Part shown: positions 37,801-58,482 of the stretch, piece by piece
How positions within the stretch are numbered: position 1 is the first letter of the stretch
How the letters are laid out: each line of letters begins with the position of its first letter
Assembly (NCBI GenBank): GCA_030324005.1
Contig: JARDVH010000059.1
Coordinates: forward strand, 61,396,053-61,460,052
Length of the DNA stretch: 64,000 nt
DNA from: Negaprion brevirostris
Taxonomy: Eukaryota
Direction of reading: 5' to 3'
Notes under the pieces: generated by a model
What the model was told of the DNA's origin: nothing
The model's database searches: none
What the model saw: only the letters and a program-made list of their open reading frames with translations
Program-made: the position numbers and the translations under genes

Positions 37801-37921
37801 ATCAACAATGGACTGTTTAATCTGTGCTGGAGCTGTTAGTCAGAAAAGTCTCAGCAGCTCATGGACCATCAATTCCTTGTGTACAATTCCTTCTTGGATC
37901 TGCCCTGGAGCTGTCAATCAA

Positions 37922-38066
37922 GATGCCGGCGTTGGACTGTGGTAAACACAGTAAGAAGTCTCAAAACACCAGATTAAAGTCCAACAGGTTTATTTTTCCA
38001 AAAGCTAGTGACGTTGGCTACAAATAAACCTGTTGGACTTTAACTTGGTGCTGTGAGACTTCTTAC
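37922..38066. mobile_element. Fold-back Penelope-like pLTR mini-element, family B, perfect 12-bp TSD
   Basis: GCTGTCAATCAA at 37910-37921 and 38067-38078; inverted arms GTAAGAAGTCTCA..AGGTTTATTT / AAATAAACCT..TGAGACTTCTTAC. Confidence 0.85.
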
Positions 38067-39123
38067 GCTGTCAATCAAAACAGTTCTGAGAGCTTTCAGT
38101 GCTAGAAAGGAGAATCTCCTGAGTGAAATTGAATGCTCCTATCCATCAAAGTATTTCAAAGACGTTTCAGAGCAGCTCGGCCTTATGAGAGAAAGCAAGG
38201 GGATATCTCTGGAGAAACTGATAGATCCTGTCACTCAAAGCACTTCAAAGAGGTTTGTAACACCTGAAGCTTCTAAAATCAACCAAAGGCAATCCCTACT
38301 ATAGAATGCTGCNNNNNNNNNNTTCAAAGGTTTTACGGACAACAATAAAGATCTTTAGCAGAAAGGTGCCTGAAATATCCATCCTAACAATGTTTTCCAG
38401 GCAACAGGAAGTCCAGCCATGAGAGCCCCATCCTTTGGGAAAGGCCTGAAGTCCACCGTTCACCTTAACCTGAGCCCCATCCCAACCCCCCCAACAACGT
38501 GGTCTCGACAGTTTCCCCCTCTGCAGCCTGGCAGCGGCAGAGAAGCCCATGGACACAGTGCAGGCAGTACTCACCTCCTTACCCCCTCCACCACCCTCCC
38601 CGCCTTCAGAGTCCATGGCGCCTGGTCCCCGATTGTCAGGACCAGGAGACATTGGCACCATGGGACCATACTGGGTGGCTGGACCAAATGTCATTGTCCA
38701 TAATGACATTCACATTTAAATCAGTTATGATCAGGTTCTCACCCGCTCTGGGTGAGAACCTGACTGGGGCCAGGCACAATGGCTGGGAGAATCACAATGG
38801 GTGCGACGTCCACCAAGAATCCTGACCTGGCCCTCTCGCCTGACTCAATGGGTCACACATATTGCAGTTGGCACTAGCAACCTTGGAGAATCCACCCCTA
38901 ACCCCCAACTAACACCCCCCCCACCGTCCCCCCAAAATCCAATTGATATTAATGACAAGGAAAAAAGGACTAAAGACAGGCACATGGGTCACTCTTAGAT
39001 GTTAAATAATATTATAAGATCAGTTGAATCTAGCCATTAGCACCTCTTAGTTGGATATTTGTCTCCCTGTGGTGTAACAGTCAAATTACTATACAAATAG
39101 TGTATGACTTAATTAAAAACAGA

Positions 39124-40000
39124 GGGGGCGATCTTAGCAAAAAAATTCTAAGTGCCGAACAAGTGTGAAAACGGGAGAGTTTCAGATCCATTTTTTTGAC
39201 AAGGCCACAAATAAAATCTTACGGCATTTAATGCAAAAAAGATACACAATCTGATTTCTGCCAGTAGGTGGATGTGGCTAAGCTCACCTGAAAGCTGGCT
39301 GCTCATACAAGAGGGCACAATCATGTATGTGCTGGACTCTCTATGCAACAGCGTCTGGATTTCGCCCGCCTACCCCCGCTCATGATCACTGGCCTCCCCA
39401 GCCGACTGGTCCCCATATACCCTGGATATTGCACCCCCACCACTCCTGGTCATTCGTTGCCTCCCCGGCCCAGCTGATCACCTCCCCCCAACTTGGCCCG
39501 GTCAACTACCTCCCACCTGACCCGGTCGATCGCCCCATCCCAGTCCAGCCTGGCCGATCACCCTCCCCCAGCACTGCCAAGGTGCCAAGCTGGCAATNNN
39601 NNNNNNNNNNNNNNNNNNNNNNNNNNNNNNNNNNNNNNNNNNNNNNNNNNNNNNNNNNNNNNNNNNNNNNNNNNNNNNNNNNNNNNNNNNNNNNNNNGTC
39701 GATCGCCCCATCCCCGTCCCGCCTGGCCGATCACCCTCCCCCAGCACGGCCAAGGTGCCAAGCTGGCAATATCAGGCAGGCACTGCCCTAGGAGCACTGC
39801 CCTTGACCACCAGAGGGGGCCTCATTGGCCTGCGGTCCTACCAGCAAAGTCATCATGCCAAGTCACGGGGGATCATACGTGTACCTCACCAGTGAGGACA
39901 TTCACAGGCAAGGCCACTAAGGCAAGTGAGCCCAGACGATTGCATCCTGAGCTCACTAATAATATTGAAATCAACATTTAAATCGATTTAAATACTATAA
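39124..40000. mobile_element. Harbinger-like MITE (left part)
   Basis: Left end GGGGGCGATCTTAGCAAAAAAATTCTAAGTGCCGAA is homologous to the left ends at 42580 and 52114. Confidence 0.65.
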
Positions 40001-42579: not shown

Positions 42580-43621
42580 AGATTCTCCCCAAAAAATCCA
42601 AGTGTTGAATTCACGTAAAAACTGGAGAAAATCCCACTGGTGTTTTCAGCAGCAGTTTCGAAATGAATCTCCTACACTCTATGCACTGAAGAGGGCACTA
42701 GTGTAAATCAGTCCAAAAAATCAGTGGACAGGGCCTATCCCCGCTGGAGAGGTTGGCAGCATAGTGCTGAGTGGGCCACTATGAATGTGCGATCTGTCAG
42801 TGCTGAGACTGGCGCATGCGCAGTACCCGGCGCTTCCAGCTTCCTGACTGCTGGCTAGCTCAATCGCTGTCTGGGCCAGGCTCCCCTACCCTGCCCCCAG
42901 TCCACCTCGATCTCCCCTGCCCTCCCCAGCCCCAATCGCCCCCACTGGCAGCCCCAATCACATCCCGCTCCACAATCTTGATCCTTACCCGCACTGTAGC
43001 CCCAATTCCGCAGCAAGCTGACCCCCCCACCCCGATAGCCAGCCTCCCACCCTTTGTCACTCAGCCCGAATGCAGAGTGGCAGCGTGATCCCCCATCCCC
43101 ACTGATCAGCCCCCAGAGGTCCGCCCCATTAGGCACTGCGCTATTAGGCCCAATGCTCAGATGGCAGTGCCAAGGTGCCCCTAGGCATTGGGGACTCTGT
43201 CCCTTGGGCAATGCCAGGGGGCCCAGGCTGGCAATGTAAGGGGCACCCCCCCAGTGCCCAACCCTCTGGGGGGGCCTTGATTGCGCCCCCCCCTCCTCAC
43301 TCTGGCCGGGTTAGACCACCAGCTCCCCATTAGTGGGGAGCTATTGTAAACCCCGCTGGAGTGAAACACTCCTGTCCGGTTGCAGGGGTGAGGGGAGATG
43401 CTAGTGGGCCCGGAGATTGCAGTCCTGGGCTCGCTAATAATATTTAAAATATATGGTAATAAACATTACCATAACTTATGCAGTTCCGCACCAATTTCTG
43501 GGCAGAGCTGAGGGCACTGGAAATCCAGCTGCTGGAGACTCAGGGAGGCCATGGTGCCCAGAGGGGAGCCTGCGAATCGGCCTCTGCTAGAGTCTCCTTG
43601 CCTGCTGCGTGACAAAAGCAG
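42580..43621. mobile_element. Harbinger-like MITE, left part (right end displaced to 47840-47877)
   Basis: Left end GATTCTCCCCAAAAAATCCAAGTG; strong similarity to 52114-52480; breaks at GTGACAAAAGCAG. Confidence 0.75.
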
Positions 43622-44633
43622 TCATGATGTGGAGATGCCGGCGTTGGACGGGGGTAAACACAGTAAAAAGTCTGACAACACCAGGTTTCAGTCCAACCGA
43701 TTTATTTGATAGTAAATTCAAATTGAATTTACTATCAAATTCAAATTGAATTTACTATCAAATAAATCAGTTGGACTGAAACCTGGTGTTGTCAGACTTT
43801 TTACATCATTAACATTCCCAGTGAAGACATTTGTAATGTATGGGAGCACACATTGGGAATTTGAGTCCAGGAATTTCCTCCTGAATTTCCAGTATCCAGT
43901 CCAGGCATGGGAAGTTCTGCACCTATTGAAATACCCAGCAGTGTTTTAAAGCAGTTGTGCTGCCAATGCATATTTCTAGTGTCTGAGTTACCAAATTTAA
44001 ATATGATGCTTCAGAAGAGAACACAGATCCTGTACATAGTTGCAATGTTGCAACTGGACCAATTGTGGGAGCTGTGATTGTAGCTTTCTACCCTAATTTC
44101 CTGGTAGTATGATATGTAAATACTAAAGGTTACTTATGATCTTGTAGCTGAGCTTGAATGAACTCAGAGGCAGAATCATAGGTTTGTTACAGTGCGGAAG
44201 GAAGGCTTATTCTGTATGCACCTTCTCTATAAATGAGACACCGGTCATTGAAATGCTGCATTAAACGTAATTATTAATAGTAATGATCAAGTTATTGATT
44301 TGCAAGTGCAAAATAGAAAGATTATTTTTGCTTTTAAGTTCTTCTTCACGCTTCTCTTAATTCATTGTAACACCTGCACTACTCCATCAATAAGACAAGC
44401 AAACAGTGAAACAGCACGTAGCTTCGGTGGAGAGTGGGATTGGCAGGCTGTTTCACCATGGGAGCCACCACATTACAAGTCCAGTTCTCTTTTCAGTCAT
44501 CATTCATGCACTATCTTTCCTAGCAGAAGGTACTGAGTAGCACTGATTCCTTTCTGTTCTTTAGTCTAGGAATGCTAAAGCCAAATGCAATAGATCGTTA
44601 ACTGTTGTAACAGATACATTGTTTTGCATTCAT

Positions 44634-45300
44634 TAAAGTAAAGTTTATTTATTAGTCACAAGTAAGCTTACATTCACACTGCAATGAAGTGACTGTNNNN
44701 NNNNNNNNNNNNNNNNNNNNNNNNNNNNNNNNNNNNNNNNNNNNNNNNNNNNNNNNNNNNNNNNNNNNNNNNNNNNNNNNNNNNNNNNNNNNNNNNCCTC
44801 TTCCACCATCCATCAGCTGAAACATCACCATCCATCATCTTAAACTTCTACCGCCTGTTTACTCTCTTATGCACCTAGTCTCAATCGCCCAATATGTCTG
44901 TACCCTCTGACCTGCACTACATTGGCTCATAAGTAGGCAACATGCACATTTTGAAATTCTCATCCTTGTTTTCAATCACCCCATGGTGACAGAGTCTTCT
45001 CAATCCCTGTCATCTGCTCTGTCTCACAGTCTCCCTGCATTCCTCCAATTCTGGTCTTGTGCCTCTCCAATTTTAATTACTCACAATTGATGGCTGTGTT
45101 TGCAACTGCCATAGGCCTTAAACCCCTCAGCTTCACTTTCCCCTTTTTCAGACATTCCTTAAATTCTGCATCCTTGATCAAGCTGTTGGTCATCTGACCT
45201 AAAATCTCCTTGGGCAGCTTAGTGTCAGCATCAACATCAACGTCAATGTCAAATTTTGTTTGATAAAACTCCTGTGAGGCACTTGACATGATTTTGCAGT
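44634..45300. mobile_element. SINE tail (minus), N gap, then L2 3' relic (plus)
   Basis: AAAGTTTATTTATTAGTCACAAG tail; L2 motifs ACATTGGCTC, TTTTGAAATTCTCATCCTTG, GGCCTTAAAC, CTCCTGTGAGGCACTT. Confidence 0.7.
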
Positions 45301-46167
45301 CATTAAAGGTGTTTATATTCATGCAGGTTTGTGCTGTACAAACAAGACTACATCTTGCATCTCTTAAACATGTTCAAGACACAGTGAGAGAAAGAGACTC
45401 AAACAGCTATGGCAGATTGTTAATGCTAAATGGTAGCAGCATATTCCACAAAGGAGTCGGTATCAGGTTCTAGGCTAGGCTGTTCAAAATCGAAAGGACC
45501 GCCTTGCTATACATGCTGTATTAGACAGCCCATCAGACTAAAAGACTCAACATGCGCTTTTAATGAGCACATATGCATTCATGTGAGACACTTGGGGTAT
45601 AGCTTACAAACCTTTTTCAATCAATATGTCATGTCAGGGACACCGATAGATCCATGTTAGTGAAATGGAAAATTCTTACTGCAGTGAACCCTTAACCCTT
45701 TTACAATGTTTGTGTAGTTTTATGCCTCTTATTATTATGTAACCATGGCTTCTTTGTCACAAAATCACTTCAGACTTTGACACAGATTGTACAGATGGTG
45801 AGGCTGAATGTAAATAGCCTGTCTTTAAATTATGACATTCAATCTTGAGGCCAATATGTCCATTTAGCAGCAAATGTTACTGCACTTTAAATGCAAACAG
45901 TATTTTTGACTATCTTACAATTATGTTGGCAATAATATCCCTGAAGTACTGAGTTGTCTCTTGTTATTTGTTTCCTCAGAGGTTGATTTGATTTGTTTCT
46001 TTTTAAGGGTAGTCATTGAACAGCCCGTTTCTTTTTCTTCTTCTTCTTCAATACACCGCCCAAAAGCAGATTGAACCAAAAGCATCATGACTGCCACCAC
46101 AGATAGGGCAAGGAGGCAGATCCTGAATCCACCCCACCCAAAGTGTTTGCAAGGGTTTATTGCCACA

Positions 46168-46322
46168 GTCTGAAAGACGTGTTGGTTCAGTGCATTGACC
46201 GTGCTAAATTTTCCCTCAGTGTACCCAAACAGGTGCCGGAATGTGGCCATGAGGGGATTTTCACAGTAACTTCATTGCAGTGTTAATGTAACCCTACTTG
46301 TGGTTAATAAATAAACTTTATA
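46168..46322 (+). mobile_element. HE1-type SINE 3' half
   Basis: TCTGAAAGACGTG..CAGTGTACCCAAACAGG..AATAAATAAACTTT. Confidence 0.85.
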
Positions 46323-46552
46323 AACAAAGCAGGGATTAAGTCCTGTTTTGTTGGCACCAGTCTGATCTGCACTGGCCATCCAGCCAAGTGGCTCTCCAGG
46401 CAGTCCATGTTGTTGTGGCAACATGCATTTTACATGCATGTTGTAGTCCAGAACCATGGATTGTGATGGTAAAGGCTTTAATTTTCTTTCCTTCACAAGG
46501 CCGGACAGGACTCCCTCACATTCTTACTACTTGCTATTGACACATGTTTAAA

Positions 46553-46682
46553 AGATTTACAGGTTGACACTCGGTCTGATTGACCGTGTTACGAACACAC
46601 CTTCCTTGACCATCAAGGCCTGAGTGGGACTCGAAACCTGGCTCAGAGGCAGGGACACTAACCATTGGGCCGCAAAATCTCC
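46553..46682 (-). mobile_element. Short tRNA-derived SINE (non-HE1)
   Basis: Minus strand reads GCGGCCCAATGGTTAG (A-box-like) .. GGTTTCGAGTCCC (B box). Confidence 0.65.
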
Positions 46683-47335
46683 AATAACCGTTACGTTGTG
46701 AGGTAAATCATTGCTGTAAAAATAGTCAAGCTAACCTTGTCCTTTTGTGTAAATTTGTTTTGACAATGTGATACCTCACACTGATTAAAACTTCCAACCT
46801 CATGGAGGAATGATTTTTTTTAAGAAAGGCAAAACTTCATTGACTCTAATGAATGTTTTTCTTCTCTTCTCGTCAGGTCAATCATTAACATGAACATTTT
46901 GTTGACTGCTACCAAACAAACTGACTTTTTTCCCTAGATTCGTAATTGGTCCAATATTATAAATAGCCTGACATTGTGCCAAGACGGAATGCACTTGTTC
47001 GTTAGTGTGGAGCAGCAATCAAAACCTTGTAGGACGCACTGCGAGATTCAGTCACGATTCCGCCTTCTTGTGCTTCAGTCAGATGGAAAGAAATTTGGCA
47101 GCGAGCTAAAAGTTCACCTTGCCTTGTCAGCATTTACCACATGAAAGCTACAGCTCAGGAAAAAAAAGGAACAGAGAATGACCAGCTGTGCCTCCCTGTC
47201 ATATCTGAGCACTGAGCTCATCATTCACTGGGCAATCGTTGGCTTTCTGCCTAAGTGCAGCCAAACATTATTAACCTTCACACTGAGGTAAGGTAATAAC
47301 AATATTTCTCCCTCCTTTTACTTGATGTGGGGCGT

Positions 47336-47364
47336 ACACACACACACACACATACACACACACA
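47336..47364. repeat. (CA)n microsatellite, interrupted
   Basis: Directly visible. Confidence 0.9.
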
Positions 47365-47839
47365 TGAGTGCTTCTTTATAATGCCTGGACTCACATCTAT
47401 GGCTCTACTGAAACCTTATCAACGGAAGAAGTATTCTTTAAAATTGAATGATTGCAGCTGCGCAAGGCAAATGCTCGTGCAGCTGACAGTTAAATAGGGG
47501 ATGATTTACAGCCAACGTGGCCTGAATAGATCTTATGTGGACTTAAGGCAAACTTACATTGTCTGACCCACCTTCGGGCATCATGGTGGACTGGGGAGGT
47601 GGGGGGGTGGGGAGGGGAAGTGGGGGGGACAGGTGAGGAAGGGCAAGGGGTCACAAGTTGCGTCTTTCGTTGCATAATCATTTCTTGGAGGATAAGTGAT
47701 AGCACATGTCAAGGTTCCAAAATCAGCTATGTGCAAATCCCAGACACTTCAACATCATTAGGGGCTAACCCGAAAACTAGTGAGTTTACTATCAAATAAA
47801 TCGGTTGGACTGAAACCTGGTTTTGTCAGACTTTTTACT

Positions 47840-47877
47840 GTGACAAAAGCAGCACAGTGGGATGTTAGAATCGCCCC
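47840..47877. mobile_element. Right terminus of the split MITE
   Basis: Ends AGAATCGCCCC, the reverse complement of the GGGGCGAT(T)CT left TIR seen at 39125. Confidence 0.7.
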
Positions 47878-48234
47878 AACATTTATTAAAAGTTTCCAGT
47901 TTTAAATTGAAAAAATGCATTTTTCTTCTGTAGTCAGATAATCTTCCTGCTCTACACATAAAATGAGAGAAAAAACAATGGGAAAAGTCAATTTTCCCTT
48001 CACTATATTAGCTTCCTACACAGCAAAGTAATGTCCTTTGAATCGCCCCACTGTTTCTACCTTTATAAAGTTATAAAGTTATAAAGAAAGTTTCTACCTT
48101 TATTATTCAAATGGTACATTTTTTTTCTTTTATGGGATTTGAGTGTCGCTGGCAAGCCCACCATTTGTTGTCCATTCCTAATGGCCTTTAAAGTCGGTGG
48201 CTTGCTATTTTAGAAAGCAGTTGAAAATCAACCA

Positions 48235-49278
48235 TGGGCAGAATCTTGTGCTATTGCTGGTGGCGAGTTTGGAGGTGGGTAGGACAGATGCTTAGGCAGA
48301 ATGGTGTCATATGCCACATTCCCACCTCTGTCCACATTAGGTTCTGGATGGGAAAGGTGCAGAGCTGACCTTTTCACCCCACCACTGATTGAGGCCCTTA
48401 AGTAGCCATTTAATGACCACCTGAGGGCCTCAACCCACAGTGGCTAGAATTTACACAGCTGCCGGGAGGCCTCTCACCATGCAATATGAATGAAGGCTGC
48501 TGCCCTGAGTACAGGATCCCACCGCTGGGCTGGAGTGGGGAGGCTGTCTCCACCAGAGACTGTCTGTGCCTCTCTGAGCAACTTAACATCTTGAATTTTA
48601 CTACCCCATCTGCCATGGAATCAGAGCAGGAGAGGGGAAGACAACAGAAATGTCCATTAACCCCAGGACAGATTTTACAGTTTCGGGATGAGCGAGGCCG
48701 TAGAATCCCACCCAACAATGGGAAAGGGGGCCCGCCAAGGGCCAACCCCTACCCTTGCTTCTGAACCCTCCACAACCTTCCCCGTAAGAGCTGCCCACCT
48801 TCTCTCCATCCCTCCATCACTTATATTTGTCCTGGGTCGCTCCACGATCCTGAGAGACCAGAAGACAGTCTCTGGACAGCTGCCACTTCTGAACCCTCTA
48901 CAACCCTCCCTGCAAGAGCTTCCCTCCTCCGTCCCTCCATCACTTACCTTTGTCCTGGGTCACCTCACGATCGTGGGAGAGCAGAGGGCATTTTCTGGAC
49001 AGCAGCCATGGTCTCTTTCCATAATGCTGCTGCTGAGCACAAAAGCTGGTGATCTGATTGGCTGGCAGCTCTCGCTAGGTGAGAATCCATCCCCATTCCA
49101 TCCCCCACCCACCCCCTTTCCCCTCAGGGTCCTGATTCCAGAGGGCCCACTGCTAGGCCTTACCACTGTTTGTTTGGCTTGTAGCTCAGGAAAACTTCTG
49201 GAAAAGAGGCAGTGTAAGTCTCTCGCCAGCTCTCCAGCCAGCAGGTGAGACCCCCGATGTCGTCACCTCTTACTAGCC
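48235..49278. mobile_element. Harbinger-like MITE with internal ~125-bp tandem duplication
   Basis: Left end GGGCAGAATCTT; units 48758-48885 and 48886-49008. Confidence 0.65.
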
Positions 49279-53929: not shown

Positions 53930-55453
53930 ACCTCTTAGAGTGGAGGTGTGTAATGACTGGAGAAGGTGCTGGCAGTCTCGCAGGAAGTGAGTTTGAATGG
54001 AACCAGGTAGCCTGAAAGATTAATGCCAGGATCTGGAAGAAATATTAAAGGAAGTTCAATGGCCTTACATGAGTAGTCAAGATTAGTTAATGTATCTTCA
54101 AACACTAGCTTCAACCAACTGCACCACTAGCCTCAACTACTGCTCCATTAACCAAAGGCACATCATGCACCTACCAACACTGTCTATCATTCAGAACTCG
54201 TGTCTAACATGTACCTACTACACTGCACTGTCACACACTGACCATTGCTACAAACCTCATACCGACATTTCACAACTTGCACACACTGCCAGCTCGTCAA
54301 CCAGGACAATCACTTGATCTCACACTCACAGCCATCTGCATAATTTAGAGGAATGCATAGAAGTACGATCTGTGTCTGTTAAGAGACTGGCCAGCCTGTG
54401 CAGCTAGGGAAAAATGAGGGCACACATGAGTTCTGCAGCAGGGAACTCAAATGTATACTTTGATGGGATCACCTGCAGAAGAAGGTTGATGGGTATGTTA
54501 ACAAACCCATGATGCACTGGGAAGCAAGCCAGAAATAAATGTCAAGGAGTGCAAAGAAATTGACAAACAATAGGGGTTTGTGCAGAGGTTTGGAGCCCAT
54601 CCTTCCCAGCATGGGAGCAGTGACTAACTGCAGCAACGCTCTTGTAGATCCAATCAATAATATGTCCAATGGCCAATGTCTCAACTTCCATTCAGTACAG
54701 CCAAAAGGCAGCCAATGTCTGGAAATTGCAATGGAGCCTCAGATTCTTGTTACTCAGGCTCAGGCTGCTGTTACTCAGGCTCAGATTCCTGTTACTCGGG
54801 CTCAGGCTGCTGTTACTCAGGCTCAGGCTGCTGTTACTCAGGTTCAGACTGCTGTTACTCAGGTTCTGACTGTTACTCAGGCTCAGACTATTGTTACTCA
54901 GGCTCAGGCTGCAGTTACTCGGGCTCAGGCTGCTGTTACTCAGGCTCAGGCTGCTGTTACTCAGGTTCAGACTTCTGTTACTCAGGTTCCAACTGTTACT
55001 CAGGCTCAGNNNNNNNNNNNNNNNNNNNNNNNNNNNNNNNNNNNNNNNNNNNNNNNNNNNNNNNNNNNNNNNNNNNNNNNNNNNNNNNNNNNNNNNNNNN
55101 NNNNNNNNNCTGCTGTTACTCAGGCTCATGCTGCTGTTACTCAGGCTCAGGCTTCTGTTACTCAGGCTCAGGCTGCAGTTACTCAGGCTCAGGCTGCTTT
55201 TACTCAGGCTCAGGTTGCTGCTACTCAGGCTCAGGCTGCTGTTACTCAGGCTCAGACTACTGTTAATCAGGTTTAGACTCCTTGTTACTCAGGCTCACAC
55301 TGCAGTTACTTAGGTTCAGATGGCTGTTACTCAGGCTGCAGTTACTCAGGCTCAGACTGCTGTTACTCAGGCTCAGGCTGCTGTTATTCCAGCTCCGACT
55401 GCTGCCATCATGATTATGGATGACAGTGTGAAAAAAGACTTGCAGGATACTGT
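53930..55453 (+). pseudogene. Harbinger Myb/SANT accessory gene relic
   Basis: EWNQVA*KINARIW..RKFNGL..VVK resembles the Myb/SANT end W..VA..IN..W..C.KKFNDL, followed by C/A-rich intron-like sequence and a coiled-coil-like tail (APTAAIM..VKKDLQ). Confidence 0.6.
54738..55386. repeat. 21-bp minisatellite (GCTCAGGCTGCTGTTACTCAG)n
   Basis: Over 20 visible units, some 18 or 15 bp, with an internal N gap. Confidence 0.95.
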
Positions 55454-58217: not shown

Positions 58218-58482
58218 GTTTGTGTCTTTATATGCCCTGTTTGTGAACAGAACTCCCACTTACTTGATGAAGGAGCAGCACTCCAAAAGCTAGTGGCTTT
58301 TGCTACCAAATAAACCTGATGGACTTTAACCTGGTGTTGAGAGACCTCTTACTGTGTTTACCCCAGTCCAATGCCGGCATCTCTACATCTATTCTCTCTG
58401 CACGGATGCCATCAGACCTGTTGAGATTTTCCAGCATTTTTTATTTTTGTTTCAAATTCCAGCATCCGCAGTATTTTGCCTT
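58218..58482 (+). mobile_element. Penelope-like pLTR family B (decayed hammerhead) adjoining a family A terminus
   Basis: TTGATGA-A-GGAGC-AGC-ACTCC-AAAAGCTA at 58264-58292; continues to GCCGGCATCTCTACATC, then sequence homologous to 3650-3710. Confidence 0.8.

Follow-up and report, generated by a model that had tools for sequence, protein, structure and literature searches.

The exchange of target site duplications (TSDs) between copies of a transposable element (TE) has been described before. A crossover between two SVA copies, one of the partners being a circle with lcr16a, gives swapped inner and outer TSDs (Damert 2022, PMC9132208, Fig. 4), and inversions driven by a TE are recognised in the literature by chimeric copies whose TSDs have been exchanged, as for Galileo in Drosophila buzzatii (Delprat 2009, PMC2775673). 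Here we describe a locus of this kind in the shark Negaprion brevirostris, within a stretch of 64,000 nucleotides (hereafter the window; contig JARDVH010000059.1, positions 61,396,053 to 61,460,052), in which short Penelope-type pseudo-long terminal repeat (pLTR) copies frame 3.9 kb of host DNA (the cargo), with one duplication (TSD1) at the outer ends and a different repeat, ACATCATTA, at the inner ends. The duplications were probably swapped by crossover (about 0.65), the partners being an older pLTR with flanking (A)CATCATTA and the younger TSD1 insertion. In the likeliest form of this event, which we hold at somewhat less than even odds, the exchange was of inversion type and the scaffolder glued its two breakpoint contigs across a gap. 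The class of mechanism is already known from SVA and Galileo, and the locus is a further instance with an ambiguous topology.

The SVA-lcr16a case shares with this locus one inner and one outer TSD and a cassette between two retrotransposon copies of different age, but differs in its clear reciprocal chimeras, its two known pre-integration sites, its demonstrated permutation and its persisting donor, whereas the shark locus offers 54 nt of homology and a single-copy cargo, with no empty inner site found in the relative X8 and an assembly gap where the junction would be. Galileo inversions likewise show exchanged TSDs, no gain or loss of DNA and two copies of one TE family; there, however, the copies are long DNA transposons whose opposite orientation is shown directly, while here orientation and second breakpoint are unobserved. 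Host DNA framed by Penelope pLTRs is known from Adineta vaga (Arkhipova 2013, PMC3846280), where a member of a gene family was copied and the accessible text describes no inner repeat, in contrast to the shark locus, which has no donor copy and has inner junctions that probably predate the outer TSD. Poseidon-type Penelope elements (Frangieh 2024, PMC11167929) resemble the locus in their AT-rich, ATT-containing targets and in copy ends about 35–39 nt apart (tail-bearing and tail-less), as two reverse transcriptase (RT) start sites would give; two such sites flank the tail in that study, and the two pLTR end points seen here fit. This likeness is one of copy ends and targets, and the available part of that paper reports neither capture of host DNA nor cross-joining of two targets. 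In human segmental duplications formed via circles (Chicote 2020, PMC7450558), circular permutation is the diagnostic of a circle, as it would be here, but those are duplications with microhomology junctions rather than TE crossovers, and permutation is not shown at the shark locus. Retrozymes have been treated as derivatives of Penelope (bioRxiv 10.64898/2026.07.22.740005). No Penelope case with swapped TSDs was found in the literature searched, which covers few subscription papers.

Layout of the exchanged duplications

Read from left to right, the locus consists of TSD1, the dinucleotide TC, a tail-bearing pLTR copy (minus strand), a hairpin centre, a tail-less pLTR copy (plus strand), ACATCATTA, the cargo, a second ACATCATTA, a further tail-less pLTR copy and TSD1 (Table 1). 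This swapped pattern, which an initial annotation of the window had pointed out, is present both on reading the sequence and in a repeat search; the search also bears out the annotation's placement of the two inner repeats, with the AC at 43803–43804 common to ACATCATTA and the left pLTR end, and of ATGATGT (43624–43630) as the distal end of the pLTR, i.e., its tail end. ACATCATTA is exactly 9 nt with no extension possible, and three copies lie in the window, all on the plus strand. The A at 47760 is common to ACATCATTA and the right pLTR start, and GTG is common to the right copy of GTGACAAAAGCAG and the right pLTR end. The inner repeat is more than chance, since an exact repeat of at least 8 nt arises at two random junctions in 46 of 100,000 draws with ±2 nt slack and in 187 with ±4 (0.05–0.19%), and a 9-nt repeat in 9 and 49, respectively.

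The cargo consists of two pieces of host DNA, segment 1 and segment 2, split by a gap of 100 N. It holds old repeats and a CA run without poly(A), and 27 open reading frames (ORFs) of at least 55 amino acids. The stretch 44639–44696 is labelled a short interspersed element (SINE), and the repeat at the start of segment 2 is labelled LINE-2-like. Both cargo ends, the start of segment 2 and the right flank have one match each in the N. brevirostris assembly (G000), and the cargo is also single in the 1.06 Mb around the locus. Depth in the run X14 agrees, at 5.6–8.5 over the cargo (single-copy bins) and 7.9 over the right flank. No second copy of the cargo was found in the shark's own genome, nor was a donor copy or donor scar found in this incomplete assembly. 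Eight pattern searches for pLTR partner junctions returned 15, 0, 10, 6, 6, 0, 1 and 0 matches; all were read, and each proved to be the present locus, an ordinary insertion, a member of an older subfamily or sequence without relation to it. The assembly is of short-read type, with 330 gaps in the 1.06 Mb, and because it is incomplete the absence of a donor scar or partner junction is only moderate evidence.

Table 1. Features of the locus, in positions of the window.
Feature	Positions	Strand	Evidence
TSD1 left copy GTGACAAAAGCAG, 13 nt	43609..43621	+	Repeat search; single copy at the empty site of X8 record 24
Tail-bearing Penelope-type pLTR 3' copy, own-strand end CCACATCAT, A at diagnostic site	43624..43720	-	Best other copies 97–99% alike
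Hairpin centre with exact 23-nt tandem duplication (43717–43739, 43740–43762), which may be real slippage or an assembly loop	43717..43762	.	Inverted repeats, DNA fold
Tail-less inverted pLTR copy, end TTTTTAC, A variant	43747..43804	+	Cargo-start junction in X14 record 1 and X15 record 10
Inner repeat ACATCATTA, left; CATCATTA is host sequence	43803..43811	+	Alignments of X7 record 18 and X8 record 25 begin at 43804
Segment 1: single-copy host DNA, ends in SINE 3' end (44639–44696, minus)	43812..44696	.	
100-N gap, size undefined; sole discontinuity relative to outgroups	44697..44796	.	X15 record 11, X7 record 20
Segment 2: single-copy host DNA; begins within old LINE-2-like repeat; SINE piece and CA run inside	44797..47751	.	
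Inner repeat ACATCATTA, right	47752..47760	+	Alignment of X8 record 30 continues to 47763
5'-truncated tail-less pLTR copy, AGGGGC to TTTTTACTGTG, without CTGACGA core, G variant	47760..47842	+	Cargo-end junction in X15 record 15
TSD1 right copy GTGACAAAAGCAG	47840..47852	+	Right flank single-copy

Junctions and empty sites in relatives

Eighteen runs contain the stretch, and four of them (X14, X15, X7 and X8) were aligned to 43430–48130 at a likeness of 85%, while X1–X6, X9–X13 (small share) and X16–X18 were left out of the alignment. The word share is 0.86 for X14, 0.30 for X15 (82% of the run read) and 0.13 for the outgroups X7 and X8 (96% of X8 read). Eight pieces per run were considered among the matches listed, and the joints reported for X14, X15 and X8 are a lower bound.

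TSD1 is a true TSD, as a single X8 contig (record 24) reads the empty site, with 43445–43609 joined directly to 47841–48052. In X15, a closer relative, both inner junctions are present (record 10 aligns from 43783 and record 15 to 47789), and the alignment of the right-flank contig (record 16) begins at precisely 47840, preceded by 88 bases that do not align to the pLTR. Because an adjacent pLTR would have aligned, the TSD1 site is very likely empty in X15. The fact that X15 has the inner junctions together with an apparently empty outer site means that the inner junctions are probably older than the TSD1 insertion. X14 confirms the left inner junction only, and none of its eight listed pieces spans either outer junction.

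The initial annotation had predicted that relatives would read the cargo ends as contiguous across one ACATCATTA, i.e., at a single pre-insertion site. This site is absent in X8, where the start and the end of the cargo lie on separate contigs, record 25 being aligned from 43804 with 848 further bases upstream and record 30 being aligned to 47763 with 84 further bases beyond. Unrelated sequence thus continues past each cargo end, an observation that the annotation itself had set against its proposal, and CATCATTA is host sequence at both places, without a pLTR. Record 30 alone accounts for the X8 depth of 8.25 at 47355–47511 and the CA run breaks the X8 contigs; the 848 bases therefore do not represent the end of the cargo. 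The extension of the X8 alignment to 47763 also suggests that AGGG at the right junction is probably microhomology between host and pLTR. As a separate observation, the locus copy L133 (1500–1560) has a SINE that starts GGGC directly after TCAACATCATTA, the same 12-mer as at the cargo end, and since GGG likewise precedes the 84 further bases of X8 record 30, a SINE may start there too. In X7, the alignment of record 18 begins at 43804 with 437 bases upstream, again with CATCATTA and no pLTR, and cover at 47355–47511 is near nil (0.68), which speaks against contiguity; yet the 437 bases nearly equal the stretch leading back to the CA run (382 plus about 35), and 0.68 corresponds to 14 bases at the depth of record 18. 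Contiguity across ACATCATTA in X7 is ambiguous. Across the rest of the cargo, the outgroup pieces listed follow one another in order, and none of them bridges the CA run.

It is also important to consider the 100-N gap, which the initial annotation left unweighed. The sole break relative to the outgroups, where the internal junction of a circular permutation would have to lie, falls inside it, out of view. In X15 (record 11) there are 790 bases upstream of 44797, none of which aligned to segment 1, and in X7 (record 20) there are 833, such that the gap either conceals no fewer than 790 bases or joins the segments falsely. Of 187 gaps with clean flanks examined, those of 100 N stood for overlaps, small gaps, about 345–549 bases or, in one estimate, about 718 bases. 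Because of this range 100 N denotes an undefined size, and 100-N gaps do not prove that segment 1 and segment 2 are adjacent. A 70-N gap agreed with its repeat within about 5 bases, and several other sized gaps disagreed with the few estimates available. The gap pattern is compatible with reference-guided ordering of contigs. Directly after the gap, the old repeat contains a 22-nt tandem duplication (44804–44847, 86% alike).

The pLTR family and its targets

We take the pLTR family to be Penelope on its structure; the locus has the optional tail of 30–40 nt, the inverted tail-less copy and the 13-nt TSD1 with an empty site. No ORF for RT plus GIY-YIG lies at the locus, and no search was made for a master copy. 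Searches of the own genome for the pLTR gave 1,862 and 1,171 first-look candidates, 40 of each being scored. On our own reading, 14 of 29 other tail-bearing loci have TSDs of 8–15 nt. At least 9 of the 29 show the usual form, in which a tail copy followed by a tail-less inverted copy, with its end near TTTTTAC(TGTG), stands between two TSDs.

A single diagnostic site has A in the tail-bearing and left copies, a variant found in 15 of 66 copies, and G in the right copy, whereas intact inverted pairs elsewhere match at this site in 8 of 9 cases. The A, A, G pattern would be compatible with chimerism of both copies, too few sites being available for more, and fits two source elements, in which the 5' part of the left copy would come from the TSD1 event and the 5' part of the right copy would be older.

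Fuller pLTR copies show a CTGACGA...GAAA core, which is presumably a minimal hammerhead. Rfam gave no hammerhead match in seven pLTR loci, with sub-threshold hairpin matches only, and neither inner pLTR piece holds the complete motif, the right one being without CTGACGA and the left one beginning after the core. Tail-less copies cut off at AGGGGC, just past this hammerhead-like core, recur in L025, L030, L031 and L097.

In the own genome, 1,591 copies end in TTTTTAC before a base other than T, and (C)ATCATTA follows at three other junctions against 0.38 expected. As the same letters also begin ordinary TSDs in L049, L085, L125 and L130 (13-nt TSDs in the last two), (C)ATCATTA is a host target with a modest preference. 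By itself, ATCAT shows no enrichment at tail-less ends (5 including this locus vs. 3.6 expected). In L085–L094, CATCATTA stands at a constant distance (27-nt match) before the tail junction in 6 of 10 matches, and several TSDs begin with or near ATT, consistent with an endonuclease preference. L122 (1500–1750) has a tail copy and a tail-less copy without a matching TSD on the two sides, which may be a second exchange or a target deletion.

Young copies (at least 92% alike) occur at five other sites in the 1.06 Mb. X7 is almost without the young pLTR subfamily (depth 25, vs. 257,000–474,000 in the other three runs, bin 47669–47825), and this near-absence is a possible marker for dating the subfamily. 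The window also contains a pLTR insertion of an older subfamily, which has the usual inverted form and a TSD of 12 nt, GCTGTCAATCAA (37909–38080), and another old pLTR copy (58248–58389). Two tandem units of about 125 nt each, 80% alike, lie at 48758–49008, and tandem arrays with internal 100-N gaps at 54539–55450 and 39480–39900 give long repetitive open frames.

Probable exchange, possible capture of a circle and other explanations

In the exchange that we favour, an older 79-nt tail-less pLTR, bordered on each side by (A)CATCATTA, would have separated segment 2 from segment 1 at another locus; its two junctions are present in X15, and we infer their linkage. A new insertion of the usual form (TSD1, tail-bearing, tail-less, TSD1) would then have entered at 43609 in this lineage, its empty site being present in X8 and its timing being our reconstruction. 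The tail-less copies would next cross over within the shared 54 nt, with left flank-pLTR-segment 1 and segment 2-pLTR-right flank as products, and the scaffolder, guided by the long flanks that lie next to each other in the relatives, would order the two contigs and join them with 100 N. The 3.9 kb cargo would thus be two breakpoint flanks and not a mobile unit, and a circle would be unnecessary. If the older copy was chromosomal and in opposite orientation, the crossover would give an inversion with these two junction contigs, unchanged copy number and no scar. An inversion-type exchange is favoured because of the two ages, the two source elements, the lack of duplication and the lack of a donor scar, and the TSDs are indeed exchanged without gain of DNA; the glued join is favoured because the sole outgroup break sits in an assembly gap, as such a join requires.

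Several points weigh against this exchange. The contig break at 44797 is unexplained, with X15 and X7 reading through it, and reference-guided scaffolding is suggested by gap patterns only. The apparently empty site in X15 comes from one contig with 88 upstream bases unread, and the linkage of the X15 junctions through one pLTR is an extrapolation. The two X8 copies of CATCATTA have no pLTR and other sequence beyond, and the older insertion would need one of two rare events: either at least 0.9 kb was deleted or rearranged between 8-mers that were already there, or X8 alone gained an insertion at this very site. A length of 54 nt also provides little homology for ectopic recombination. No partner locus was found, as not one of the 660 gap-facing ends within ±500 kb continues the old repeat of segment 2. 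A 4,240-N gap about 75 kb upstream has the size of a partner locus, but its flanks do not continue that repeat (they rank 21st and 78th among 146 and score 25 and 14.5, vs. 67–114 for family copies, which are training sequences), and three gaps of 4.0–5.5 kb lie in the 1.06 Mb. A repeat fragment beside a gap 203 kb upstream is self-contained and was rejected as the partner, and a match to CATCATTAGGG 95 kb upstream is at chance level with the wrong preceding base. SINE TSDs offered no clear handle on the missing flank in three copies.

The initial annotation had taken the layout as the signature of a circular intermediate. A circle is possible, but the layout is not specific to one, since exchanged TSDs equally mark inversions (PMC2775673). 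Of the routes that the annotation named, recombination of a pLTR-bearing circle remains a candidate that ranks below the inversion-type exchange, and we regard it as tentative at best. Here an integrating Penelope, with a pLTR at both cDNA ends, may have captured a 4–5 kb host circle of extrachromosomal DNA (segment 2-ACATCATTA-pLTR-ACATCATTA-segment 1) by crossover at the TSD1 insertion, via about 54 nt of homology to the older pLTR on the circle and with the closure point in the gap. This account shares the evidence of two ages and two variants and has an exact precedent (PMC9132208, Fig. 4); the relatives have at least 790 bases upstream of 44797 that are missing here, as a closure point would give, and the 437-base and 0.68-depth figures of X7 are a weak hint of contiguity. 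However, as there is neither a second copy nor doubled depth, loss of the donor has to be assumed as well; only by chance would the closure point lie within a small gap region, and X8 is not contiguous across ACATCATTA. The annotation's other routes, crosswise joining of a circle during integration and retrozyme-like copying around a circular RNA, are forms of a one-step event, opened at one ACATCATTA and cross-joined during the TSD1 insertion. The layout itself, the ambiguity of X7 and the Anolis enzyme, which cuts and extends both strands and prefers ATT (PMC11167929), would suit such an event, but it is disfavoured because the inner junctions, present in X15 with its apparently empty outer site, probably predate the outer insertion. 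X8 is not contiguous, the two pLTR pieces come from different variants with no complete hammerhead at either end, and the cargo has old repeats and a CA run but no poly(A), all of which makes a one-step capture very improbable.

The best fit to X8, with host CATCATTA at both ends and unrelated flanks, would be a collinear cargo framed by two older pLTRs that had inserted independently, each at its own CATCATTA site; the unit would have been moved later, by Penelope trans-mobilisation as in Adineta vaga or as a circle from pLTR-pLTR recombination. The modest preference for CATCATTA at other junctions (3 of 1,591) also speaks for it, but young copies are sparse, no partner junction, scar or donor copy was found and the gap would have to hide about 800–1,070 bases, so we consider this move unlikely. 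It is more doubtful still that the contig is misassembled, two ordinary insertions having been cross-joined at their pLTRs in a genome without a swap. The short-read-type, gap-rich assembly, the hairpin with its odd 23-nt duplication and the outer junctions left unspanned by the listed X14 pieces would allow this; against it, the private differences of the right copy at 47776 and 47821 have 44 bases between them, such that assembly words of at least 46 keep the path unique, and a reciprocal misjoin among more than 1,500 copies is unlikely. The annotation's caveat that microhomology or template jumping brought ACATCAT from the pLTR tail to the junctions has in its favour a 7-nt identity with the tail end, yet it is largely refuted at the left junction by X7 and X8, which have CATCATTA at 43804 without a pLTR, and the ordinary 13-nt TSDs of L125 and L130 start with the same letters; we give this reading almost no credence.

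If the event is real, very short Penelope remnants can rearrange the germ line of sharks, whose genomes evolve slowly, be it by inversion or by capture of a circle; the rearrangement would probably be coupled to new integration, and such events could be found genome-wide via exchanged TSDs. Should a circle have been captured after all, single-copy DNA would have moved in the shark germ line and any old pLTR would be a handle for relocation. For gap-rich assemblies, a caution follows from the favoured exchange, as an inversion can mimic mobile cargo.

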